Virus record (IMG/VR): IMGVR_UViG_3300037851_000359
Coordinates: 72,759 to 136,758 of that record
From: a virus
Direction: 5' to 3' (one strand)
DNA length: 64,000 bases
The notes under the pieces were generated by a model. That model made no database searches, was not told the origin of the DNA, and saw only the letters and a program-made list of their open reading frames with translations. Of this stretch, positions 24,845 through 56,986 are shown one piece after another. Both the position numbers and the translations under genes were made by a program. The first letter of the stretch is position 1, and the number at the start of each line of letters is the position of its first letter.

Positions 24845-25507
24845 ATGTTCAATGATAAAACATTATTTAATAATTCAGGAGTTAAAAAAGAAAGAAAACG
24901 TGGAAAAGGTGTATCAAAACCCATTAAAAAAATACATGTAGATAATAAAGAATTACGAGAAGAATTAACAAAATTTAGACATACAGTTTTAGAACAAAGG
25001 GCCAATAAAGAACAAAAATTAAAAGCATTAAAAACGGATTTATCAAAATTAGAAAAAAATTATAAAACCTATAAAAAATTAATAAGACCAAGAAAAGAAG
25101 TTATTGAAAAATATTTAAATGATATTCGATCATTAAACGAACAACTAGAACAAGTCAGGGATCAAGAATGCAATGGACAAGCATCAGAACGGTTAGGGGA
25201 ATTATTTTTACAATTAGTCGATAATTTTGCAACAAAAACAAACTTTTCAAATTATCCATATTTAGAAGAAATGAAATCCCGCGCTATATTCTTCCTGCTA
25301 AAATATAGCCACTCTTACGACATAAATAAACTTAATTCTGTTGGACAAATACCTTCTGCCTTCTGTTATTGCACACAAATAGTCCATAATGCATTTAGAC
25401 AAGTTATCAAAAAAGAAAAGAAAAAATTAGCATCTAAAAAAGAATTTATTGATGATTATTTCCAAAATAATCATTTTAATAGAAAATCTGAAAACCTTAT
25501 GGGATGA
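24845..25507 (+). CDS. gp55: late-transcription sigma factor (gp55-like)
   Basis: HVDNKEL, LGELF, NFSNYPYLEEM and AFCYCTQIVHNAFRQVIKKEKK match gp55 conserved blocks. Confidence 0.9.
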   Translation: MFNDKTLFNNSGVKKERKRGKGVSKPIKKIHVDNKELREELTKFRHTVLEQRANKEQKLKALKTDLSKLEKNYKTYKKLIRPRKEVIEKYLNDIRSLNEQLEQVRDQECNGQASERLGELFLQLVDNFATKTNFSNYPYLEEMKSRAIFFLLKYSHSYDINKLNSVGQIPSAFCYCTQIVHNAFRQVIKKEKKKLASKKEFIDDYFQNNHFNRKSENLMG

Positions 25508-27497
25508 TTGACTTAAAAATACTTTGTAATGTATTATTTTTAATATTATTTAATAATAATTTTGCTTTATCTATATTCTTTATATTAATGTTATATATAA
25601 TCAATGATATATAATCATAATCATTTTCACATTTATAAGAATCATAAATAGTATTTATTTGAATGTCAGTTAAATCATCCCATTGAACAGAAGTTTTAAT
25701 TGTGGCTTTTTCAATTTTAACTGATATTATTATTTCTGTATCATTAACTGATGATAATATGCCTGTTATAATACCTCTATTATTAGTATCGAATGATACT
25801 TCGGAACTCAATTTAAAATAATTCAATTTATATTGTTTTAATTTTTCATAATTAATAACAATTTCTTTAAAATTATTTTTTACAATTTCATTATCTGGAT
25901 AATTCATAATTGTATTATCTATTATAGTATTACACGTTTGAACGTTTAAAGAAAGTAATACAGGCATTATTTTAGAAATAAAATTATTCAATTCAATAGT
26001 TTTAAGATGAATCTCATTATTTTTAATTGTTTGTAAATTATATTTAATATTATCTATAAGTCCTTTATTTTCTTCCATTTTCGATATATATTTAATATCA
26101 TCAATTAATTTTAAATTATTTTCTATAATAGAAATGTTTTTACTTGTTTTGCAAGTATCAATTAAATTGTTAAAATATTTATTAAAATGGTCATCAACTA
26201 TTTTGATATAAGATTCTAATGTATCTTTGATATAATCATTCATATTTTTATTAATAACTGCAATAGCAGCATCATAATCATGAATATTCAAAAAATTATT
26301 GAGATTATCTGTAATGATTTTATGAGAGTCTTTAATAAATTTTTGTTTATTTAATTCATTATCAGTAAGTTCTTTAATTATATTTGGTAGGATTGAAGAA
26401 TGTTCATTATATTTTTTAGCAATCAATAATAATTCATTAATTTTATTAAATTTTATTGGGTTATTAGTTTTAAATATAATGGCGTGTTGAAATAATACTT
26501 CATTATTATCATTTTTTTCAGTATTCTCTATTAGTTGAGGAACAACTTCAACAACCGGGATTGAATGTGATAAATAAAATTGTATATAACCAATAATCAT
26601 CAAAAGACTTATAATTATTACCCACAATGATAAGAGATAATAATTAAAATTCTTTTTTATTTTTTTATAAGGCAAAAAAATTGTTTTAGAATCTATTTTA
26701 TCTAAATCATCATATAAATCTTGTCCTGATTGATATCTATCATCAGGATTTTTTTGTAATAATTTAATAATAATATTATTAATATTTTTTGATAATTTAG
26801 GGTTATGATCTGTAAGATTTTTAGGCAATTCCGTAACATGTTTAACTAATAAAGCAGATGCTATTTCTGAATCAAAAACCGGGACACCAGTTAGCAATAA
26901 ATAGAAGGTTGCTCCCAAACTATATAAATCTGATCTGCCATCAAGTTTTTGTCCTGACGCTTGTTCAGGAGAAACATAGGCTGGTGTGCCCAAGAATTTA
27001 CCTTCTAAGGTAATATCAGAATCCCCATTTAATGATCTTGCTAGTCCCAGGTCTGCTAATTTTGGATTGTCGAAATGATCTAAAATAATATTTTCTGGTT
27101 TAATATCACGATGGATAATATCTTTTGAATGAATAAAATGTAATCCTATAGCCAATTTTTTAAGATATTCAATAGCAACAATTTCAGGAATTGGACCAGT
27201 ATCTTTAAATACTTGTTTTAATGTTTTTCCAGAAACATACTCCATTGAAAAATAGTAATAAGGATCAGAAAATCCGCAATCATATACAGATACTATATAA
27301 GGATGATTAATTTTCCCCGCAGATTTAGATTCTCGTAAAAAACGTTTAACGAATTGTTCATCTTTTGAAAATTTTGGAGGAAGTATTTTTAATGCTACAA
27401 AACGATCCAATGATAATTGTTTGGCTTTAAAGACGGCACCCATACCGCCTTGGCCTAGTTTTTCGATAATTTTATAGCCTGGGATAGTTAAATGCAT
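25497..27497 (-). CDS. membrane-anchored Hanks-type Ser/Thr protein kinase (start probably ATG 27497)
   Basis: GQGGMG, VALK, HRDIKPEN, DLG, GTPAYVSPEQ, DLYSLG; TM helix YYLLSLWVIIISLLMIIGYI; long C-terminal region. Confidence 0.95.
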   Translation of the reverse strand: MHLTIPGYKIIEKLGQGGMGAVFKAKQLSLDRFVALKILPPKFSKDEQFVKRFLRESKSAGKINHPYIVSVYDCGFSDPYYYFSMEYVSGKTLKQVFKDTGPIPEIVAIEYLKKLAIGLHFIHSKDIIHRDIKPENIILDHFDNPKLADLGLARSLNGDSDITLEGKFLGTPAYVSPEQASGQKLDGRSDLYSLGATFYLLLTGVPVFDSEIASALLVKHVTELPKNLTDHNPKLSKNINNIIIKLLQKNPDDRYQSGQDLYDDLDKIDSKTIFLPYKKIKKNFNYYLLSLWVIIISLLMIIGYIQFYLSHSIPVVEVVPQLIENTEKNDNNEVLFQHAIIFKTNNPIKFNKINELLLIAKKYNEHSSILPNIIKELTDNELNKQKFIKDSHKIITDNLNNFLNIHDYDAAIAVINKNMNDYIKDTLESYIKIVDDHFNKYFNNLIDTCKTSKNISIIENNLKLIDDIKYISKMEENKGLIDNIKYNLQTIKNNEIHLKTIELNNFISKIMPVLLSLNVQTCNTIIDNTIMNYPDNEIVKNNFKEIVINYEKLKQYKLNYFKLSSEVSFDTNNRGIITGILSSVNDTEIIISVKIEKATIKTSVQWDDLTDIQINTIYDSYKCENDYDYISLIIYNINIKNIDKAKLLLNNIKNNTLQSIFKSIIP

Positions 27498-27504
27498 AGC
27501 CAAT

Positions 27505-27568: not shown

Positions 27569-29581
27569 TCATTTTTTAATTTTTCTTAATAATTGATTTG
27601 ACAATTTTTTCATTTGTTCTAAGATAAGATTTTCATCCAAAGGTTTTTGGCGATGTTCGTATTTTTTTGTTGAGCAAGAATAAAAGTTTTCAGATAAGAA
27701 TTTAGCGCATTCTTTTAATGTTGCATAAGGTCCGATTGCCTTTTTTCTTGCACTATTTCGGTCGCACATTGAGCAACCTTCGGATTCATTTAAAGGATCA
27801 ATTTGATTTTCTATTTTTTCTGCAATCAAATGACGATTTAAATTTGGGGCAGATTCATTTAATACTAACGGAACATCAACTTTAAACATTTCATTTAATC
27901 TTGATTTAGTGGTTCCAATTCTTGAATAAACTGGAGCGATACCTTGGGTGGCATTAATAGCTTGGTTTGTCGTACCGTCCGCAACTCCTGGCCCAGCTAC
28001 AGATGCAGTTCCGCCTTCTTCAGTAATTGGGTCTAATGATTTGGAAGCGTCTTGTATTGCATCTTCTTCAGAATCAAAGGGTTGTGAGGTTTTGATAGGA
28101 TTTCCATTATCATCTAATTTTTTCCATCCAAATTTTCCTGATTCAAGTTGATATACAGAAATATTATTATTTATTAACATTGATTTTGGATCATTGGTGT
28201 CTTCTGCTAAAACAGGAGGATAATCAGCTTTCCATAATTCCATCATCCGTTCGACTTCAATTGGATTTGTAAATAATTGCCAAACATCCCCATATTGATC
28301 TTTGACTGTATCAGAGGGGGTATATTCAGGTCCAAATATTTCAGGATTGACATATACGCCTTCTTTTCTTATTTTAATAAGACCATCTTTTTCCATATCA
28401 ACAAACATTTTATGAACATCTTTAACTCTCTTGTCTAAATAATTCTGTTCTGCTTGATCTATTTCATCATGATTAGTAGGATCATCATCTATTAATTCCT
28501 CTTCATTTTCATCCCTAACCTGATTAATAGATTTAGGGGGAGTAATATCATCCATAGAAATAAATTTTTGTCTCACTTCTTCTAACGCTTCCATTTCTGA
28601 TTCAAATGGGATTGATGATTGATTAATTATATCATCAGTTGCTCCGTATTGAAACCATCCCCATTTTCCAAGATTATTTTGTTTAATTGAAATCTTTTTT
28701 TCAATTAATTGTTTTTCATCATCTTCTGTAATAACACCTTTTGGTTTAAATGAAGTATCATCAGCATCCAAATTATCATAATGATTATCTAAATCATTAT
28801 AATTAACATCATCAGATTCTACATCAGGATTAAAATGTATAGGGGTTTTATTTATATTTTCTAAATCTTCTAAAAGATTTTTAAAATGTTTTCTTAATAA
28901 GTCGAAATTATCTTGTTTAACATCTTCATGTGATTCAGAGGCAACCTTAACATTATTTTGTTTATATTTATCAAACATTTTTGGGTCCATAGTTGTTTGA
29001 CATTCTGAAACTTGACAAACTTTAGGATCAGCTTTAAAATTCAATCCTTTTTCTTCCCATTGTGATTCATTATCAGCTTGAGCTACGAATTGATCTGCTG
29101 CTAATTTATCATCAAATGGTCCATGTTTAATATTGGGATCTTTTGTAGAAACCACATAGAATCCTAAATCATCTTCTATGATTTTCCATTCTCCATCTTC
29201 CATTAATGGTTGATTTGCAATTTTTTGTTGCTGTTGTTGAGAATTTTTAAATCCTTTAGCTTGCAATTTAGAAATTTCTTCTTCTTTTTTAGCTATATCC
29301 TGTTTTAATTGAGCAATTTTTTGAGCAATATTCGGATCAATAGCAATATCTTCTTTTAAATCTTTAGGAGTATTAAATGTTTCTTTGATGCTCTTATCAG
29401 GGGTTTCTTTAACTTCTTTAATATCATGAGTTTGTTTAAGAGGTTTTTCTTTAGGAGTATCAAATACAACATCTTCTTTTAATACTCTTTTAACATATCC
29501 ATACCCTTCAAGAGTAACATATTTAGAATTTTTATTATCATCTTTGACATTAAACCATTGATTTTGATATTTAGCTTTCAT
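27569..29581 (-). CDS. acidic putative internal head protein carrying an MCP-like N-arm segment
   Basis: Late promoters upstream, many (L/I)-x-E sites, and a 28-aa segment 23/28 identical to MCP residues 46-73. Confidence 0.6.
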   Translation of the reverse strand: MKAKYQNQWFNVKDDNKNSKYVTLEGYGYVKRVLKEDVVFDTPKEKPLKQTHDIKEVKETPDKSIKETFNTPKDLKEDIAIDPNIAQKIAQLKQDIAKKEEEISKLQAKGFKNSQQQQQKIANQPLMEDGEWKIIEDDLGFYVVSTKDPNIKHGPFDDKLAADQFVAQADNESQWEEKGLNFKADPKVCQVSECQTTMDPKMFDKYKQNNVKVASESHEDVKQDNFDLLRKHFKNLLEDLENINKTPIHFNPDVESDDVNYNDLDNHYDNLDADDTSFKPKGVITEDDEKQLIEKKISIKQNNLGKWGWFQYGATDDIINQSSIPFESEMEALEEVRQKFISMDDITPPKSINQVRDENEEELIDDDPTNHDEIDQAEQNYLDKRVKDVHKMFVDMEKDGLIKIRKEGVYVNPEIFGPEYTPSDTVKDQYGDVWQLFTNPIEVERMMELWKADYPPVLAEDTNDPKSMLINNNISVYQLESGKFGWKKLDDNGNPIKTSQPFDSEEDAIQDASKSLDPITEEGGTASVAGPGVADGTTNQAINATQGIAPVYSRIGTTKSRLNEMFKVDVPLVLNESAPNLNRHLIAEKIENQIDPLNESEGCSMCDRNSARKKAIGPYATLKECAKFLSENFYSCSTKKYEHRQKPLDENLILEQMKKLSNQLLRKIKK

Positions 29582-29604: not shown

Positions 29605-29618
29605 TATTTATATTTATA
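29605..29618 (-). promoter_or_regulatory. two overlapping T4-type late promoters (TATAAATA)
   Basis: TATTTATA at 29605 and 29611 on the + strand; a gp55 homologue is present. Confidence 0.55.
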
Positions 29619-30124: not shown

Positions 30125-30637
30125 TTATAATAATTTATAATAAGATAATCCAATACAAATAGCGTCAGCAATGCCATTATGGGCAACAGAAGATCGTTTT
30201 GAAGCAATCAAATTAGCTGATGGATAATTATCTTGACAAAATTGAATAGTTCCCGTTTTTTCCGTATGATCATATTTTTCACCAAGAATAAGTTTTTTCC
30301 AGGTTTGCGGTGATACTTCTTTATAAGGAATATCTAATGCTTGTAATACCCCTTCAACTATTCCAACCCCCTTTCCAAAGTTAAACATTGATACAGTACC
30401 TTGATCTGGTCTTGCTGATACTAATTCAAAAATGGCATATTCAACATTATTTTCGGTTAAATATCTACCTAATATAGATCCGTTTATTTTTTTCTGAATT
30501 TTTTTATTCTTTTTAATTTTTAAAATAGGCATTCTAAAACAATCTATTATTTTTTGGTTTTCTATTAAGGCAACTCCACCAGAAAACCCAGGATCAATAC
30601 CAACTATTCTCACAAAGTCCTTTCTAATTTTGGCCAA
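30125..30637 (-). CDS. ruvC: RuvC-like Holliday junction resolvase
   Basis: IVGIDPG, FELV, FNFGKGVG, VSPQTWKK, ADAICIG. Confidence 0.88.
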   Translation of the reverse strand: MAKIRKDFVRIVGIDPGFSGGVALIENQKIIDCFRMPILKIKKNKKIQKKINGSILGRYLTENNVEYAIFELVSARPDQGTVSMFNFGKGVGIVEGVLQALDIPYKEVSPQTWKKLILGEKYDHTEKTGTIQFCQDNYPSANLIASKRSSVAHNGIADAICIGLSYYKLL

Positions 30638-31191
30638 AGTTTTTCAGGAATTGATTTATCAAAAATTATCAATAATTCATTCGGATCAGTTTTTAAACTT
30701 TTTTCATCAAAATATTTAAATGTTTTTGATTTTTCATTATAATTAAAGGGTATTCCAATTTTTGGTAATAATCTTATCCAATGATTAAATGCATTTCCAT
30801 AAAAAGTATCATCTGATAAGATTATTTTAAAATGTTTTAAAGCATACTTATATAACATTTCAGCAAACCCTTTATTTCGATACCGGGTATCAGTCGCTAT
30901 TCGTCTCAATTGAAATACTTTATCAACATTTAAATTTAAATCTGTTCCATCAATAATTTCAAAATCTGCCGCACAAACAATTAAATCATTTTTTAATATA
31001 GCAATTTGTTTAAAAGTATCAGCAAATGGCCCATACGTTACTACAATATTATAACCGTCTTGGGAATCTATCTTTTTATATTCATCTATTAAAATGTCGG
31101 ACGGTTGCCAATCTTTAACTAAATCACCATCATCATCGGTATAAGTCATTAATTTAACATCTTCTTTTAAACAATATTTTTTTAAATTCAT
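30610..31191 (-). CDS. GNAT-family acetyltransferase
   Basis: Acetyl-CoA motif A in LRRIATDTRYRNKGFAEMLY; N-terminus MNLKKYCLKE. Confidence 0.75.
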   Translation of the reverse strand: MNLKKYCLKEDVKLMTYTDDDGDLVKDWQPSDILIDEYKKIDSQDGYNIVVTYGPFADTFKQIAILKNDLIVCAADFEIIDGTDLNLNVDKVFQLRRIATDTRYRNKGFAEMLYKYALKHFKIILSDDTFYGNAFNHWIRLLPKIGIPFNYNEKSKTFKYFDEKSLKTDPNELLIIFDKSIPEKLWPKLERTL

Positions 31192-36224: not shown

Positions 36225-36800
36225 TCAAAAACTTCTTTTAGCAACAGAACCAACAGCAATTCCACCAAAAGTTCCAGTATTGACATGAGATAACTTTATA
36301 TCTTTAAAGGTTTCAGATTCCCAAGTTTTTCTTTCTTTAATATTAATTGGATTGATTTCATTTTGATTAAATATAAGAATATTTTCAAACCATGGAATTT
36401 CATTAAAATAATTTTTTAATATTTGAATTGAGTTATTATCAATAATTCCATTATTAGATAATATTAATTTATCATTTCCTTTTTTATTTCCATTTGGATG
36501 TGGAATCTGATTGGCATTATCTTTAATTTTAATAATTCCAATTAATTTTAAATCTTTTGAATATTTAGAATTAGGTTCTATTATGAAATCCCATCCCATA
36601 TTATCTGCGGGATTGATACAATTTGGAAATTCCCCATAATCAAATGGAATAACATTTGGATTATTCCATTTTTTAGTACTTCCTTTATATTCTTGAATAT
36701 TTATTTCAGGCATTTTAGAATTACATTGTTCGATAATTTCATTTAAATTATAGAATCTTTTTATTGATTCAGTTAAAAAATATTGTTTAAATGTTTTCAT
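36225..36800 (-). CDS. inorganic-pyrophosphatase-like protein with a T4-like capsid-targeting N-terminus
   Basis: IPFDYGEFPNCINPADNMGWDFII...LIGIIKIKD...NDKLIL parallels family I PPase motifs; starts MKTFKQYFLTE|S. Confidence 0.6.
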   Translation of the reverse strand: MKTFKQYFLTESIKRFYNLNEIIEQCNSKMPEINIQEYKGSTKKWNNPNVIPFDYGEFPNCINPADNMGWDFIIEPNSKYSKDLKLIGIIKIKDNANQIPHPNGNKKGNDKLILSNNGIIDNNSIQILKNYFNEIPWFENILIFNQNEINPINIKERKTWESETFKDIKLSHVNTGTFGGIAVGSVAKRSF

Positions 36801-37812
36801 TATTTTTTACCTTTTTAACAAATATTCTCATGTCTTTATATAATTGTTCTAAATCAAAATATAATTCATTCATTTCTTTTGTTGCATCTTCAATAGATTC
36901 AATAAATTCGTCATATGTTTGTTCTGGTAATCTCTCTGGATATATATCATAATTATCTTGTGGTATTTTATCATATATTTTTTTATAATCATCATATAAT
37001 TCAGGATCGTTTTTAATAATTTTAAAATTATTATTAATAAAATTCTCAACTTTTTCAAATAATTCTGATAATTCATCATAAGCCTGCATTAATTCATTTG
37101 TATATTCTTCAGATTCTTGTTCTTGTTCTCGTTTAAATTGAATATCATGATCCCTTGTATTTATTTCTAACATTTCATCATTATTATGTTGTGCATAATA
37201 ATCATTTATAGTATCAATTATTTCTTTTATTTCATTTAAATCATTTTGCGAATCAAATTCACCAATTGATATTGATTCCCATTTAATATTTTTTAATTTA
37301 ACAAATGATTCATCCCAATCTTTTTCACCTTTTCTTCTTTGTAGAGCATTTGGAATTTTTATGAATGAATTTTTATATGGTTCAATAGTTGAATAAATAT
37401 CAACATCGAAATAATATTCTAATTTTCCATAACCTTTTAATATAATAGCATTTTTATAATCCCATATAGTATTTAGAGATACAGATATTTCTTGATTATC
37501 TACATTATTTTCATATGGAAACAATAGATACGATAATACTTTTTCGAGATCATTTATTCTATTTAATGAAATCATATGCATAATTTCTGGAAATTTTCCA
37601 GTTTTTAATTTTGATTCTTTATTTTTTATTTGAGCATCATTATATGCTTTGATCATTTTTTGTTTTATGTCATTTTTTGATAATACTGATGAATCTTTAT
37701 TAACATTTATAGTTGTTTTTACTCTTTTTCGTAAATCTTTCTTTGATTCTTCTTGAAAAATATTCTTTAATCTCGTATCAAATGATTCAAAAATTTTTTG
37801 GAGGTTTTTCAT
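36787..37812 (-). CDS. putative internal virion protein with an ART-like domain and acidic helical C-terminus
   Basis: Late promoter at 37819-37826; MKNLQKIFE|S; domain paralogous to the one in 45260..46549. Confidence 0.55.
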   Translation of the reverse strand: MKNLQKIFESFDTRLKNIFQEESKKDLRKRVKTTINVNKDSSVLSKNDIKQKMIKAYNDAQIKNKESKLKTGKFPEIMHMISLNRINDLEKVLSYLLFPYENNVDNQEISVSLNTIWDYKNAIILKGYGKLEYYFDVDIYSTIEPYKNSFIKIPNALQRRKGEKDWDESFVKLKNIKWESISIGEFDSQNDLNEIKEIIDTINDYYAQHNNDEMLEINTRDHDIQFKREQEQESEEYTNELMQAYDELSELFEKVENFINNNFKIIKNDPELYDDYKKIYDKIPQDNYDIYPERLPEQTYDEFIESIEDATKEMNELYFDLEQLYKDMRIFVKKVKNNENI

Positions 37813-49658: not shown

Positions 49659-50618
49659 ATGAATAAAATTTTCATAGATTACAGAAACATGGCATATCGT
49701 AACTATTTTAAGGGTAAAAACGATATTTCAAGTATTGGCTATTCATATTTTAAATATCTTATAATAAAGGAAATTTTTGATTATATTAAAAATTTTAGGG
49801 CAGATGAAATTGTTGTGGTAAATGATTCTACATTGAATTGGAGAAAAAAGATATATCCAGATTATAAAGGACAACGATCAAAAAATAGAGAAAAACAAGA
49901 AGATGTTGATTGGGAAACAGTTTTTAAAGAATTTGATTCATTATTTTCGGAAATTAAACAATTTTTTCCATTCGTATCTTTAAATATTAATTATTGTGAA
50001 GCAGATGATATTATTGCGGTATTATCTAAATATGAAGATCAATCTAAAAAAATTATAATTTCAACGGATGGCGATTACGTTCAATTATTAAAATATAACA
50101 ATGTTAAAATTTATGATCCGAAAACTTGCACGATTGTAAAATGTGATGATCCAGAAAAAGAATTAAAAATAAAAATATATTCCGGTGATGGTGGAGATAA
50201 TATACCAAATATTTTAAAACGACACGTTGGGGACAAAATTATTAACAAACGATTTGGGAAAGAAACTGCTAAAGAATATATTGATGGTTCTAAATCATTT
50301 AAACAATTATTAGAAGACACGACTCCAGTTATTGAAGATGGAAAACAAGTTTTAGTAGAAGGGCAGCAATTAACAGTTGGGTTGCAAGCTAAAATAGGAT
50401 TAAAACGGAATACTATATTAATTGACCATAATTATATTCCTACAAAATTGCAAGAAGTAATTAAAAAGGAATATGATAATTATGTAACTCCTTATGGGTC
50501 AAGTATTTATAATTATATTTCATATTATAATATGAGAGACTTGATAGATAATATTCAAATATATGAACCTTATATTAAAACATTATTAGAATATCAAGAA
50601 AATAAAAAAGTTTTTTAA
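49659..50618 (+). CDS. rnh: T4-type RNase H / 5'-3' flap exonuclease
   Basis: WRKKIYPDYKGQR, EADDIIA, ISTDGDYVQL, GDGGDNIP. Confidence 0.92.
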   Translation: MNKIFIDYRNMAYRNYFKGKNDISSIGYSYFKYLIIKEIFDYIKNFRADEIVVVNDSTLNWRKKIYPDYKGQRSKNREKQEDVDWETVFKEFDSLFSEIKQFFPFVSLNINYCEADDIIAVLSKYEDQSKKIIISTDGDYVQLLKYNNVKIYDPKTCTIVKCDDPEKELKIKIYSGDGGDNIPNILKRHVGDKIINKRFGKETAKEYIDGSKSFKQLLEDTTPVIEDGKQVLVEGQQLTVGLQAKIGLKRNTILIDHNYIPTKLQEVIKKEYDNYVTPYGSSIYNYISYYNMRDLIDNIQIYEPYIKTLLEYQENKKVF

Positions 50619-51727: not shown

Positions 51728-53506
51728 ATGGCCGCAGATTTATTTAGAAAAGTTATACAACCGTTTGTGAAACGGAATAATTGGTCTAAAGCAGCCCAAC
51801 AACAACATTTTAATCGTTTATATAAAATCTTTGATAAGCAAGGCAAAAAATATCATAATAAAAATATTCCTGGTGCAACTGATATGGTGGATGTTACAAC
51901 CACCACCCCAGAATTCCAAAAACAAATTGGTCAATGGAATACTTTCGTCTATCAAGCAGAACCAGGAAAAATAAACAGATTAAAAGTTTGGCGGGATATG
52001 TCATTCTTTCCCCCACTTGCATTTGCTCTAGGGGAATTTGAAGACGAAGCAATAACATTAGATTCAAATAATAATCATGTAATTTTTGAAATAAATAATT
52101 TAAGACTTAATCAAAATGAAAATATAGTTAAAAATTTAGCAAAAGAATGGAATTATATCAGTAAAGATGTTTTTAAAATAACTCAAAATATTAATATGTG
52201 GTTTAATGAATTCATGATAGATGGCGAAATAATGTTTGAAAAAGTTATTGACCCTATTAATGCTAAAGAAAGAGGGATCATAAAAATTAAAAGATTACGA
52301 CCAGAATTTACTTATCCTATATGGGAAGAATTGGAAAATGATAATATTTATCAATTTGTAATTAAAAATAATGAAAATATAATGATTATGCCGCCAGAAT
52401 CAATTGCCTATGCTAATTCTGGTATATATGTGTATGAAGATAGATTCACAAAAACCGTAATATCATATCTTGATAGAGCTAAAATAAATTATCGAAAATT
52501 AAAACAGATGGAAGATTCATTAGTTATTTATAGATTGATTAAAGGATATGAAAAACGTGTATTCAATATTGAAATGGGTAATCTTCCCAATCCAAAACAA
52601 AAACAATATCTGCATGATATTATTAGAAAATATAGACAACGAAAAACATTTAATCCTGAATCCGGTGAAACATCAGAAGCATATGATGCTCAAGCATTGG
52701 TTGAAGACTTCTTCTTTGCTAAACAAAATGGTCGAGGCAGTTCAGTTGAAGTACTGCCCGGTGGCGATCACTTGGATGAAATCAAAGATGTTGAATACTT
52801 TTTACGACAGTTATATATAGGATTAAGAATACCATTATCAAGAATTAGTTCGGATTCATCGTTTTCATTAGGTGATACTTCAGATATTACTAGAGAAGAA
52901 GTTAGATTTCATAAAATGGTTCAAAAATATGTTTTACGATTTTCAGAAGTATTTAAACAAGTATTTATGACACATTTAAAATTAAAAGGGTATGCAGATG
53001 AATATGGTATTCAAGATCGTGATATTACTGTAAAAGTAGTATCTGATAACTTATTTCAAGAATACATTGAATCCAATATTACAACTATCAGAACAGAAAA
53101 TCTTGAAAAATTAATTCCATATACAGAATCAGAAAATGGAAAACCTTTATTATCCAAAAAATTTATTCTCAAGAAATATTTGAAACTCACCCCAGAAGAA
53201 ATGGCTGAAAATGACGCTTTGAAGAAAACGGAAGAAAATGTTTCGTTAAGTGGTGGTGGGGGGGGAATGGATTCGATGGGTGGTGGAGGCGGGATGGGGG
53301 GCCTTGATTTAGGTGGGGATTCAGGTGGTGATATGGGGGATATGGGTGGTGGGGGCGGTAGTAGCCCATCAGATTTAGGTGGTGATGAAGGATCTGAAGT
53401 CGATTCTGCATTAAACTCAGAATCACCAGATAATGTTGATCTATCATCAACTGACAATAAAAATGCAGATGAACCAGAAATTGACTTGGAAACCTTTGCT
53501 AAATAG
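51728..53506 (+). CDS. gp20: portal protein (gp20-like) with a Gly/Asp/Met-rich C-terminal tail
   Basis: LKQMEDSLVIYRL, EKRVFNIEMGNLP, EDFFF, GSSVEVLPGG, LRIPLSR, ITREEVRF. Confidence 0.96.
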   Translation: MAADLFRKVIQPFVKRNNWSKAAQQQHFNRLYKIFDKQGKKYHNKNIPGATDMVDVTTTTPEFQKQIGQWNTFVYQAEPGKINRLKVWRDMSFFPPLAFALGEFEDEAITLDSNNNHVIFEINNLRLNQNENIVKNLAKEWNYISKDVFKITQNINMWFNEFMIDGEIMFEKVIDPINAKERGIIKIKRLRPEFTYPIWEELENDNIYQFVIKNNENIMIMPPESIAYANSGIYVYEDRFTKTVISYLDRAKINYRKLKQMEDSLVIYRLIKGYEKRVFNIEMGNLPNPKQKQYLHDIIRKYRQRKTFNPESGETSEAYDAQALVEDFFFAKQNGRGSSVEVLPGGDHLDEIKDVEYFLRQLYIGLRIPLSRISSDSSFSLGDTSDITREEVRFHKMVQKYVLRFSEVFKQVFMTHLKLKGYADEYGIQDRDITVKVVSDNLFQEYIESNITTIRTENLEKLIPYTESENGKPLLSKKFILKKYLKLTPEEMAENDALKKTEENVSLSGGGGGMDSMGGGGGMGGLDLGGDSGGDMGDMGGGGGSSPSDLGGDEGSEVDSALNSESPDNVDLSSTDNKNADEPEIDLETFAK

Positions 53507-53713: not shown

Positions 53714-54421
53714 ATGACTTTAATACTTATAACTGAAGCGTCTGATTTTGATAATAGAATTGTTGAACCATTGATTGAAAAAGTTAAAATGTCAGATGGT
53801 TCATACAAAGAATCATATTATATTATTGGGCCATATATTCAATGTGATGTTAAAAATAGAAATGGTCGAAAATATCCAAAAGAATTAATGATGAATTGTG
53901 TCGAAAAATATAAATCGGAAAGAATGAATCCAAAATTTGGGTTTAGATCATATGGAGAACTAGGGCATCCTGAAGGTACTGATATTAATTTAGATAAAGT
54001 ATGTATCTATATTCAAGATTTACAATGGCAAGGAAATGATTGTATTGGAAAATCAAAAGTAATCGAAAAAAATCCTTGCGGTCGTATTTTAGCCTCTTTA
54101 TTAGAAGAAAAATTACGAGTTGGCGTATCTACACGGGGCGTCGGAACATTGTCAGAAGAAACTGATCATGAAAATTGCAAAATTGTTGAATCATATACTA
54201 TGATAGCTGAAGATGTTGTTGCGGACCCTTCTGCTCCAAAAGGTTTCGTTCAAGGTATATTAGAACATAAACAATATATCATTGGAAATGATGGTATTAT
54301 TACAGAATGTTATAATTCATTAGAACAAAAATTGAAAGTTTTACCTAAAAAATCTGATGAAAGAGCTAAATTATTTGTTGAATGTTGCCAATCATTTTTA
54401 AATGATATTAAAAATTCATAA
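53714..54421 (+). CDS. gp21: prohead protease (gp21-like)
   Basis: KNRNGRKYP, GELGHP, GVSTRGVG, DVVADPSAP. Confidence 0.95.
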   Translation: MTLILITEASDFDNRIVEPLIEKVKMSDGSYKESYYIIGPYIQCDVKNRNGRKYPKELMMNCVEKYKSERMNPKFGFRSYGELGHPEGTDINLDKVCIYIQDLQWQGNDCIGKSKVIEKNPCGRILASLLEEKLRVGVSTRGVGTLSEETDHENCKIVESYTMIAEDVVADPSAPKGFVQGILEHKQYIIGNDGIITECYNSLEQKLKVLPKKSDERAKLFVECCQSFLNDIKNS

Positions 54422-54490: not shown

Positions 54491-55594
54491 ATGTCTCAAC
54501 CTGAAAAAAATATTTTAGACCTTCTCTTAGAAGGCACCGATTATGGGGCTGTTCTTACCGAACAGCAAAAACAAAAGGTAACACAATTAATCAACGAAAC
54601 TGTTGATTCCCGTGTTACTGCTAAAGAAAAACTATTATCAGAATCCTTTGCACAAAAAGAAACTGAATTAACTGAATCATTCAAGAAACAAAAAGAAGAA
54701 CTTGAAGCAAAAATTAAAGATGATGAAAAAACTTTAATTCTTGAAGCTGAAAATTTTAAAAAGATCATTGAAGCAACTACTCTCAAAGAAGCACAAGAAT
54801 TTAAAAATGAAGTTGAAAAGAAAGTTAATGAAAAAGCCGAACTTTATAAGAATGAATTAGATGGAATCTTAATTAAAGAAGCAAAAGACTATAAAGAAAA
54901 ACAAGATAAAGCCCTTGTTGAAGAGGTTCAAAAATTCAAGGATACATTAATTGAACGTGTTAGCGACTACTTGGACGCTAAACTTCAAGAATGCATCCCG
55001 TCTGAAACATTAGAGGCTGCTACTAAACTCAGTGTATATGAACCATTGGTTCAAAGTATCATGGAAGGGTTCTCAAGAAACTATGTTAAACTTGATGACA
55101 CTTCATATCAATTAATCAAAGAATCTAAAAATGAGTTAGCAAGACTTGAAAATGAATTACAAACGTCAAAGAAACAAATTGTTTCTTTGACTAAAGAGAA
55201 GAAAGAAGTTGAACGAAATTATAAAATCAAGTCTTTAACAGAAGGTTTAACCGAAGTTCAAAAATCTAAAGCTATTAAATTGCTTGAAGGTGTTGAAACC
55301 GACAAGCTAGATACCCAATACAAACAAATACAAGATATTATCGTTGAATCCGCAACAGTTGAAACGCCAAAAACCAAAACTTTAGTAGAAAAAGAAGATA
55401 AAACTATTAAAGATACGGTAAAACTCCAATCAAAACCAGTTCAAGAATCAACTGTTGTTAAGATGCAACAAACAAAAATACTAAAAGAAAGTACTGAACT
55501 AGTTAAACCCGAACCCAAAAAATCTGAGCCTTCAGACAGTGATAAAACAATGCAAAAATGGAGTAACAGGATAACTCCTGGTTACGCTAAATAA
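54491..55594 (+). CDS. gp22: prohead core scaffold protein (gp22-like)
   Basis: Coiled coil with many L-x-E sites, VSDYLD and LTEGLTEVQKSK; lies between gp21 and gp23. Confidence 0.88.
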   Translation: MSQPEKNILDLLLEGTDYGAVLTEQQKQKVTQLINETVDSRVTAKEKLLSESFAQKETELTESFKKQKEELEAKIKDDEKTLILEAENFKKIIEATTLKEAQEFKNEVEKKVNEKAELYKNELDGILIKEAKDYKEKQDKALVEEVQKFKDTLIERVSDYLDAKLQECIPSETLEAATKLSVYEPLVQSIMEGFSRNYVKLDDTSYQLIKESKNELARLENELQTSKKQIVSLTKEKKEVERNYKIKSLTEGLTEVQKSKAIKLLEGVETDKLDTQYKQIQDIIVESATVETPKTKTLVEKEDKTIKDTVKLQSKPVQESTVVKMQQTKILKESTELVKPEPKKSEPSDSDKTMQKWSNRITPGYAK

Positions 55595-55627: not shown

Positions 55628-56986
55628 ATGAAGATGACGACCGAAATGTTGCTTGAGAAATGGGATCCAATGCTTAAGCACATCAAAACTGAACGTAAGA
55701 AAATCAATACCGCCAAACTTTTAGAAAACGAGGAATCTTGGTTCCATAAAGAAATTCTAAAAGAATCAGGCACCGCCTCTGATGCCGGTGTTGGTTGTGC
55801 TGATGGTACTGTCAACCAAGCTATTAATGCCACCCAAGGCATAGCTAAGTACATGGGCATTGCGATGCCTCTAGTTGCCCGTGTATTCCCTGAATTAATC
55901 ACCAATGATCTTGTTGGTGTTCAACCAATGTTTACCCCCGTTGGTCTTGCTTATGCTCTCCGTTTCCGTTATCAAACTGGTGCTGCTGCTGGCGTCGAAG
56001 CTGCCTACAACACCGTATTTGGTGGATACTCTGGTAGTGTTGATTCTACCGGAACCTCAATAACTGCTGGTGCTGCTATTGCTCAATATGGCAACCAAGA
56101 CACCCTCGGTACTGGTGGCTTAATCACTGACATTACTGGTGCTGGCATTACTCAAGGTGCTAATGGCTACTCAACTGCCTTTGGTGAACGTCTTGATACC
56201 AATGGTCGTGTATGTGGTGGTGAAACTGATACTATCCGCGAAATGGGTCTAACCATTGAGAAGAAAGAGATTACCGCCCATACCCGTAAGCTCAAAGCCC
56301 GTTGGACCCTTGAGGCTCAACAAGACTTAGCTAACATGCATAACGTTGACGTAGAAGAAGAGTTAACCGATCTCTTAGCCTATGAAATTGCTGCTGAAAT
56401 CGACCTTGAGATTAAAAATCGTATCATATACCGTGCCGTTCAAGGTGGCGTTCTAACCTGGAATTATGGTACTGTTGGTAATGCTAATGGTACTGCTGAT
56501 GGCCGTTGGGAACAAGAGAAATTCCGTACTCTCTATACCATATTACTCAAAGCCTCTAATGAAATTGCCGTTGCTACCCGTCGTGGTCCAGGTAACTTCG
56601 TACTATGCTCTCCTGGCGTTACTGCTGCTCTTGAATCCCTTGATAACTTCTTAATGTCCCCTGTTAGTGCTTCAATGAATACCGAAGTTTCAGGTGTTTC
56701 AAAAGTTGGTACTCTTGGTCGCTTTACCATCTACCGTGATAGCTTCGCCTCTGAAGACTACGCTGTAGTTGGCTATAAAGGTCCAAAAGATAACGATGCC
56801 GGTATCCTCTACTGCCCATACGTTCCTGTTATGTTTAGTCGTACTACCCAAGTTGAATCATTCCAACCTGTCATTGGTATTATGTCCCGTTATGGTATTA
56901 TGGATAGTTTATGGGGCAGCGAAAACTACTACCGTTTCATCAAGATCGTTGGCTTGACCAATAGCTCATTAGCAGGTTCACGCTGA
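55628..56986 (+). CDS. gp23: major capsid protein (gp23-like)
   Basis: LLEKWDPML, LLENE, LVGVQPM, TRKLKARWTLEAQQDL, EIAAEID, TRRGPGN, VGYKG, YCPYVP, SFQP, SRYG. Confidence 0.98.
   Translation: MKMTTEMLLEKWDPMLKHIKTERKKINTAKLLENEESWFHKEILKESGTASDAGVGCADGTVNQAINATQGIAKYMGIAMPLVARVFPELITNDLVGVQPMFTPVGLAYALRFRYQTGAAAGVEAAYNTVFGGYSGSVDSTGTSITAGAAIAQYGNQDTLGTGGLITDITGAGITQGANGYSTAFGERLDTNGRVCGGETDTIREMGLTIEKKEITAHTRKLKARWTLEAQQDLANMHNVDVEEELTDLLAYEIAAEIDLEIKNRIIYRAVQGGVLTWNYGTVGNANGTADGRWEQEKFRTLYTILLKASNEIAVATRRGPGNFVLCSPGVTAALESLDNFLMSPVSASMNTEVSGVSKVGTLGRFTIYRDSFASEDYAVVGYKGPKDNDAGILYCPYVPVMFSRTTQVESFQPVIGIMSRYGIMDSLWGSENYYRFIKIVGLTNSSLAGSR

Follow-up and report, generated by a model that had tools for sequence, protein, structure and literature searches.

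Why should a phage carry, inside an otherwise unrelated protein, a second copy of the segment predicted to form the N-terminus of its own mature capsid protein? The question is raised by a 64,000-nucleotide stretch of the IMG/VR virus record IMGVR_UViG_3300037851_000359 (positions 72,759 to 136,758), hereafter termed the window, in which a 670-residue protein, X, contains an internal copy of the arm of the major capsid protein (MCP). The reading preferred here, to which a probability of roughly 0.45 is assigned, is mimicry at the prohead stage: X would be an accessory protein that takes the position of a capsid arm and is cut by the prohead protease as the MCP is. The features needed first are the following.

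27569..29581, minus strand: gene X, an open reading frame (ORF) for a 670-residue late protein carrying the arm copy; no Pfam family and no PHROG is matched.
27881..28039, minus strand: arm module, X residues 515–567, consisting of a hydrophobic-x-Glu site, the MCP-arm copy, a PVYSRIG motif and a basic stretch.
27942..27967, minus strand: 26-nucleotide core, X copy, identical to the MCP gene.
55628..56986, plus strand: MCP of the T4 gp23 family, 452 residues (Pfam Gp23, E = 9.9e-96; aligned to T4 gp23 chains with E = 1.5e-48).
55814..55839, plus strand: 26-nucleotide core, MCP copy, identical to gene X.

Translation of positions 27935–28018 on the minus strand gives EGGTASVAGPGVADGTTNQAINATQGIA, which is residues 522–549 of X. 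The first-pass annotation located this copy correctly, but its strand does not extend to the MCP counterpart, ESGTASDAGVGCADGTVNQAINATQGIA, which is encoded at 55763–55846 on the plus strand inside the ORF 55628–56986; read on the minus strand, this interval yields unrelated residues. The likeness itself is real, with 23 of 28 residues and 60 of 84 nucleotides identical, and BLASTP of the full-length proteins returns the arm segment with E = 8e-10. Nothing else falls below E = 0.1, the second-best segment being at E = 0.11, and X and the MCP are therefore regarded as unrelated outside the arm, as had been claimed of the 670-residue carrier. X has no Pfam match to the Gp23 capsid family (PF07068, with an HK97-type body) or to the T4-type scaffold (PF25623, T4_CASP), which is a separate gene at 54491–55594. 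No second Gp23-family gene was found above the cut-off in any of the five records searched. A mimic filling sites that a gp24-type vertex protein leaves empty was considered and dropped, no gp24 paralogue having been found in these five records. The best identity of the MCP to phage records is about 34%, which indicates a divergent uncultured T4-like phage, and its gene is preceded by those of a T4-type portal, an S77 (gp21-like) prohead protease and a T4-type scaffold.

The longest substring common to the two genes is the 26-nucleotide core AACCAAGCTATTAATGCCACCCAAGG. Within it, all eight codons that specify the same amino acid are identical, versus four of 15 outside it (one-sided Fisher p = 0.001, for a partition picked after seeing the data); an identical core with synonymous divergence elsewhere had been described and is borne out. 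With up to three mismatches allowed, the 26-mer occurs at exactly two sites in the window and at none in 100 shuffles. A dispersed DNA or RNA element was dropped as an explanation, the whole 136,758-base contig holding just these two copies. Copies in other genomes differ at the synonymous sites of the core. Because of this, and because the core codons are all identical here, the most plausible reading of the core is a short and recent patch of gene conversion, in either direction.

Conversion does not account for the whole segment. Outside the core (codons 1–17), the paralogous arms of the window differ by a proportion of 0.83 at synonymous sites (pS) and 0.26 at nonsynonymous sites (pN). The corresponding values are 0.49 and 0.21 in the related contig G001, 0.49 and 0.20 in G007, and 0.87 and 0.15 in G004. 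As synonymous sites have diverged while amino acids were kept, the likeness appears to be maintained by selection and not by fresh copying alone, which argues that the X arm is kept matched to the MCP by selection, helped by occasional short conversion.

The site that precedes the arm is conserved as well. In T4, the prohead protease gp21 cleaves after L/I-x-E, and a cleavage logo mentioned in the available text of PMC9026906 agrees with this. The elements of the window concerned with processing are listed below.

28019..28027, minus strand: I519-T520-E521 of X, candidate gp21-type cleavage motif; E521 is invariant in a 13-sequence alignment, cleavage being predicted.
55757..55846, plus strand: MCP L44-K45-E46, candidate maturation site, with the copied arm (residues 46–74).
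53714..54421, plus strand: prohead protease, T4 gp21-like, Peptidase_S77, the presumed processing enzyme.
54491..55594, plus strand: gp22-like scaffolding core protein of T4 type, presumed prohead partner of the MCP arm, as suggested by the excerpted text of PMC9546572.

Both copies thus follow a likely protease site (ITE|E in X, LKE|S in the MCP), as had been proposed, and the hydrophobic-x-Glu pattern is kept in orthologues and in MCPs. It reads [LIM]-x-E directly before the arm in nine of the ten modules for which DNA is available, and L-x-E in 32 of 33 related MCPs, the remaining one having F-A-E. E521 is one of two invariant columns among 13 aligned family sequences. That a gp21-type cleavage would expose the same new N-terminus on X and on the MCP may reasonably be inferred. 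The internal proteins of T4 carry a 10-residue leader, the capsid-targeting sequence (CTS), that is removed (PMC9958956, PMC9026906, in excerpt). As T4 Alt is also processed at its C-terminus by gp21 (PMC9026906, likewise), a cut far from the N-terminus has precedent.

What the copied segment does in T4 is described in the parts of PMC9546572 that were available. Residues 66–105 of gp23* are flexible and not resolved inside the unexpanded head, where they probably touch the scaffolding core, and the arm moves to the outside of the capsid on expansion. The head-length mutations A66D, A94V and G97S fall within these residues. By HMMER alignment, the segment common to X and the MCP (MCP residues 46–74) corresponds to about residues 59–88 of T4, with a weaker likeness continuing toward 'MG...R'.

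X belongs to a family of 12 representatives, itself included, recovered at E ≤ 1e-3 in an exhaustive HMMER scan of 1.84 billion proteins. A word-index protein search returned X alone among 8000 scored candidates, and tblastn against 50,697 phage records gave no match. Related IMG/VR contigs were located through the MCP (34 loci), and X orthologues were found in G001, G006, G007, G011 and G002/G008. A related-locus search for further orthologues retrieved only G001, G006 and G007 among viral contigs, and only the G007 contig again among metagenome contigs. The domains delimited in X are:

29462..29581, minus strand: N-terminal small β domain, residues 1–40, with the N-terminus that is a signature of the family.
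27572..27847, minus strand: C-terminal folded domain, residues 579–670, with conserved Cys residues (predicted local distance difference test, pLDDT, 86–95).

Family members open with a small N-terminal domain. Acidic stretches that vary come next, then a conserved 'DDVNYNDLDNHYDNLD'-like block and an insert that also varies; the hydrophobic-x-Glu site, the arm copy and a PSR-[LIM]-G-like motif with its basic cluster follow. Most members end in a domain of about 90 residues with conserved Cys residues, and this domain also occurs stand-alone as P0011 and P0013. The basic cluster lies no more than about 15 residues beyond the arm; it reads RIGTTKSR in X and RRK, KRK or KKKK in other modules. 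In a seven-sequence alignment, residues 524–556 hold 10 of the 41 invariant columns. In pairwise comparisons of the window, G001, G006 and G007, pN is 0.20–0.33 in the arm versus about 0.5 in its flanks. The segment is therefore not decaying in relatives, the outcome by which the first-pass annotation had proposed to judge it. The arm copy, the preceding hydrophobic-x-Glu and the following basic tail are among the best-conserved parts of a fast-evolving family. In the family member P0004, residues 163–243 form an inserted domain matching phrog_7595 (unknown function) with E = 6.5e-16, which indicates that the variable middle of the family accepts extra domains. The arm of P0012 contains 'NPAIIG' and resembles, by eye only, MCP arms of the G002/G011 type.

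An AlphaFold2 model of X, made with the 13-sequence alignment, has a mean pLDDT of 59.9 and is confident at residues 1–40, 467–514 and 579–669. Over most of residues 518–578, between two confidently folded domains, pLDDT is below 50. The arm is thus probably a disordered linker in this model, and a low-pLDDT segment between folded domains is typical of a linear motif. Foldseek searches of the model against PDB and BFVD gave no matches at E ≤ 0.001. The weak matches were to DUF1508/YegP-like small domains (E 0.04–0.3, probability up to 1.00), not significant by E-value; this resemblance concerns small α/β units at X residues of about 130–145 and 467–514. Residues 575–670 had no usable match in the ESM Atlas, and hhalign of the X family against T4 gp61.2 gave a probability of 0.6%.

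The module is also found on other carriers, among them those of two distant clades (G004 and G024), and there it can be compared with MCP arms that differ strongly between clades. A profile built from nine modules was searched in 29 records and detected one non-MCP carrier protein in each of nine; records without a match mean little, because most are small fragments. In G004, whose MCP is 56% identical to that of the window, a search with its own arm revealed a second arm copy in a 302-residue protein, in which a 12-residue leader ending in LQE is followed by an arm sharing 18 of 24 residues with the G004 MCP arm. When G005 and G024 were each searched with the single sequence of their own MCP arm, only the MCP was returned; the profile later found a module in G024 and none in G005. 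The G024 carrier has 493 residues, and its arm is of its own clade's 'SAGGATVS...GIARF' type. Outside the module, neither the G004 nor the G024 carrier is related to X. The carrier in G010 has 164 residues. All copies of the module share a tail motif that MCPs lack. The 280-residue X orthologue of G002 (locus L056, 1501–2340; same sequence in L055 of G008) has two tandem arm modules, the second of which ends in ...DDIALYMGKLGVKRK and retains the 'YMG' of the MCP.

Local alignment scores were used to match each arm to the MCPs. Against its own MCP the G004 arm reaches 97, and against none of 15 others does it exceed 56. The G024 arm scores 66 against its own MCP, 60–73 against four other MCPs of the same type, and 47 or less against those of the window clade. 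For X arms from the window clade, of which there are four, the scores are 91–119 with MCPs of their own clade and 27–53 with distant ones. The arm therefore follows the MCP arm of its own clade in six of ten modules (four in the window clade, G004 and G024), which amount to only three independent clades.

Most of the genes that carry the module also have an upstream motif, TATAAATA, the T4 late-promoter consensus. Two features of the window are involved.

29605..29618, minus strand: two overlapping TATAAATA motifs, 24–37 nucleotides upstream of the X start codon.
24845..25507, plus strand: gp55-like late sigma factor (phrog_234, E = 4e-22), which would read TATAAATA promoters.

The motif lies 20–37 nucleotides upstream of the start codon in X and in all five other orthologues with DNA, and within 40 nucleotides upstream of eight of nine module genes, including the G004 and G024 carriers, the exception being G010. 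Across the window, it is found 5–60 nucleotides upstream of 13 of 58 ORFs versus 0.87 expected from its density.

Two cultured phages provide further cases. T4 gp61.1, a protein of 54 residues annotated as hypothetical, aligns without gaps to T4 gp23 across the cleavage site E65|A66 (17 of 37 residues, E = 3e-10). It reads FIKE|DMVAGDSGG...TTSGAVVNKGP where gp23 reads FLTE|AEIGGDHG...QTSGAVTQIGP, and continues with a Lys-rich tail. It thus resembles a minimal form of the module (a leader ending in FIKE, the arm copy and the Lys-rich tail). It differs from X in that it is free-standing with a CTS-like N-terminal leader, has no TATAAATA directly upstream, and shows no homology to X outside the module. 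Literature searches for 'gp61.1' returned incidental mentions only. Syn9 gp190 (174 residues, L118 1030–1554) starts with MKEE; next come a copy of the gp23 arm of Syn9 (64% over 28 residues, the shared pattern being TTGYTGGD..TGP.AG[YF]DPV) and a basic tail. Like X, it has a Glu site followed by a copy of its own gp23 arm and a basic tail; unlike X, it has another carrier body. Its gene is located two genes upstream of that for primase, and T4 61.1 is likewise just upstream of the primase gene. RefSeq names gp190 'major head protein', whereas the original record says only 'gp190' and gives no function; the RefSeq name was probably triggered by the arm copy. Syn9 gp188 (L118 77–661) is called 'head protein' by RefSeq, the original record giving no function. 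The arm copies in X, T4 and Syn9 are probably a head-assembly signal.

The following course of events is proposed. The module, consisting of a hydrophobic-x-Glu site of gp21 type, a copy of the first 25–45 residues of the mature MCP and a short basic tail, would seat one accessory protein per genome in the assembling prohead, at the position of a capsid arm. There it would face the core or the inner shell, mimicking the MCP segment that faces the scaffolding core. The prohead protease would then cut the module at the same type of site as the MCP, and in X this would release a C-terminal fragment of about 150 residues with an N-terminus resembling that of the mature MCP. Selection would keep the copy matched to the MCP and short gene conversion would help, the 26-nucleotide core being one such event. 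The first-pass annotation had suggested that the peptide could be a docking mimic for the capsid lattice that anchors cargo inside the head. By analogy with T4, anchoring to the mature lattice from inside is less likely than a role in the prohead, because in the excerpts of PMC9546572 the segment contacts the core and then goes outside.

Several observations weigh against this proposal or narrow it. We infer the cleavage of X, its incorporation into the prohead and its binding partner. The modules of G011 and G010 and both of those in G002 score 20–58 against all MCPs and resemble no specific arm. The syntenic gene of G030 has no module: in the slot between the RuvC-like gene and rnh, it is only 105 residues long (L075 1438–1764, minus strand) and stops short of the position at which a module would begin; that lineage has thus lost the module. 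Taken with the four non-matching modules, this loss means that some lineages can do without the close match, or without the module as a whole. The late-promoter motif is absent just upstream of the G010 gene and of T4 61.1. Ratios of nonsynonymous to synonymous substitution rates (dN/dS) are rough, because dS is saturated, at or above 1 in most pairs. The site of G024 is A-T-E and not [LIM]-x-E, and that of P0008 is F-T-E. In the HMMER alignment, T4 E65 lies opposite D53 of the MCP, seven residues past E46 and in a gapped stretch; the cut site of the MCP is therefore set here by the motif, its exact position being a prediction. X starts with MKAKYQNQWFNV, the earliest [LIM]xE in it has its Glu at residue 36, and a folded β domain is modelled for residues 1–40; it thus has no N-terminal leader of about 10 residues ending in L/I-x-E. 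As X, unlike some other ORFs of the window, is without a CTS-like leader, the usual T4 packaging route is not indicated. Finally, the role would be limited to the prohead stage, because a mimic held inside could not follow an arm that is externalised, as that of T4 is in the text available of PMC9546572.

Among other explanations, the one that fares best, although it is considered unlikely, is that of an assembly regulator or decoy. The module would compete with capsid arms for the core, for neighbouring subunits or for the protease, and would adjust when cleavage happens, or else head size and shape, no cargo being delivered. There is one module protein per genome, unlike what is expected of a general cargo tag, and the smallest carriers, T4 gp61.1 (54 residues) and that of G010 (164 residues), leave little or no room for cargo. 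The T4 mutations that alter head length fall in the copied segment (PMC9546572), and competing scaffolds set capsid size in SaPI1/80alpha, with DarA-Hdf proposed to act likewise in P1 (PMC12810830; both papers as excerpted). Yet the carrier parts, sizeable and different from one clade to the next (670, 302 and 493 residues), look like swappable cargo, and regulation would assign no role in X to the basic tail or to the folded C-terminal domain. Mimicry in the prohead followed by cleavage is preferred.

Less likely still is recognition by a third factor, close to the shared modification substrate that the first-pass annotation offered as a second possibility. The arm would serve as a handle for a chaperone or a modifying enzyme, such as a glycosyltransferase acting on a Ser/Thr/Gly-rich stretch, which would treat the MCP and X alike. 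The arms are indeed rich in Gly, Ala, Ser and Thr in every clade, and that of T4 ends up on the capsid surface according to the portion of PMC9546572 available. A substrate recognized by composition would, however, require neither residue-by-residue tracking of the MCP nor a conserved hydrophobic-x-Glu, and no such enzyme or chaperone was identified. The N-A-T sequon that X and the MCP share in the window is not kept in related MCPs, which have NAQQ, NGQQ or DGTQ; N-glycosylation at this site was dropped on that ground.

That the copy is a functionless by-product, with ectopic recombination repeatedly inserting part of the capsid gene, which is highly expressed, into a disordered linker that tolerates it, is improbable: although the identical core shows that conversion between the loci happens, the arm falls in a low-confidence AlphaFold2 linker, and G030 has lost the module while G011, G002 and G010 have degenerate forms of it, the module is among the best-conserved parts of X, keeps its amino acids with synonymous sites near saturation (as in G004), has in all copies the tail motif absent from MCPs, and recurs from T4 to Syn9 to the present clades, always after a Glu site.

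The proposed prohead signal can be set beside known ones, here described from excerpts of the papers cited. The CTS of T4 (IPI–III, Alt) is similar in being a short portable signal, ending in L/I-x-E, on non-homologous carriers. It is processed by gp21 and brings proteins into the prohead core (PMC9958956, PMC9026906, PMC5694885), processing of X being a prediction. The CTS, of about 10 residues, sits at the N-terminus on the upstream side of the cut and does not remain on the product, whereas the copy in X lies downstream of the cut, would remain on the product, has 25–45 residues and is internal (residue 522 of 670). The X module copies the mature N-terminus of the capsid protein, and no match of a CTS to the capsid protein is described in the portions of these three papers that were available. 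In SPN3US, phiKZ and 201phi2-1, many head and ejection proteins are likewise cut at x-x-E by a T4-like prohead protease, and a part in directing proteins into the prohead is proposed for their propeptides (PMC5694885). These propeptides differ in being N-terminal and removed, and no likeness to the N-terminus of the mature capsid protein is reported in the same excerpts. P1 DarA/Hdf and SaPI1 CpmB are comparable as accessory proteins that join the procapsid beside the capsid N-terminal region or the scaffold, DarA being processed by the head protease and CpmB competing with the scaffold (PMC12810830). They differ in binding through helical domains of their own, no copy of a capsid arm being reported in the part of that paper available. 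No description of a capsid-arm copy inside another phage protein was found in the accessible text of the literature searched, virion-proteome supplementary tables not being covered. What is new here is the large family X with its internal module, the match in three clades, the example of Syn9 and the visible conversion patch.

A broader proposition, possible but doubtful, is that T4-like phages, T4 included, share a second address label for the head. This label would be a copy of the mature MCP arm that evolves in step with the MCP, is cut by the protease at the same type of site, and reserves an arm position for one and only one accessory protein in each genome, with cargo that is freely swapped, from none in T4 gp61.1 to the 670-residue X. 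As the module exists in T4 (61.1) and in Syn9 (gp190), the idea is directly testable in laboratory phages. Recognition between the scaffolding core and the shell of T4 is still unresolved according to the text available of a review (PMC9958956). In the copied module, the capsid segment believed to contact the core occurs naturally in portable form, and the module could be used to probe this interface. It may be a second route, beside the CTS, for loading proteins into T4-type heads, and its matching with the capsid arm across clades marks residues of the arm that are constrained.

The neighbourhood of gene X is rearranged relative to that of its relatives, in which the gene in the X slot lies between a RuvC-like gene and rnh, about 6–9 kb upstream of the MCP gene and on the same strand. 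In the window, the RuvC–X block is on the strand opposite to the MCP gene, and X is followed by a Ser/Thr kinase gene. The latter, directly downstream of X at 25497–27503 on the minus strand, encodes a 668-residue protein with an N-terminal Ser/Thr kinase domain (Pkinase, E = 3.5e-54). It looks like an insertion in this lineage, because an rnh-like gene follows the X slot in G001, G006, G007, G002/G008, G010 and G030. At 49659–50618 on the plus strand, just upstream of the portal region, an ORF was noticed whose start resembles, by eye, that of the relatives' rnh (T4 RNase H-like; MNKIFIDYRNMAYRNYF...). The RuvC–X block thus appears to have been separated from rnh and inverted in this genome.

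Three ORFs on the minus strand start with CTS-like leaders: 36225–36800 (MKTFKQYFLTE|S), 36787–37812 (MKNLQKIFE|S) and 30610–31191 (MNLKKYCLKE|D). Judged from these leaders, ordinary CTS cargo seems to be present in this phage as well. In G024, the gene beside that of the module carrier (L093 2083–3087, minus strand) encodes what looks like a TnpB/OrfB transposase-associated protein of the IS200/IS605 type. The T4-type portal of the window (51728–53506, plus strand) has a long C-terminal tail rich in Gly, Asp and Met (GGGGGMDSMGGGGGMGGLDLGGDSGGDMGDMGGGGGSS).

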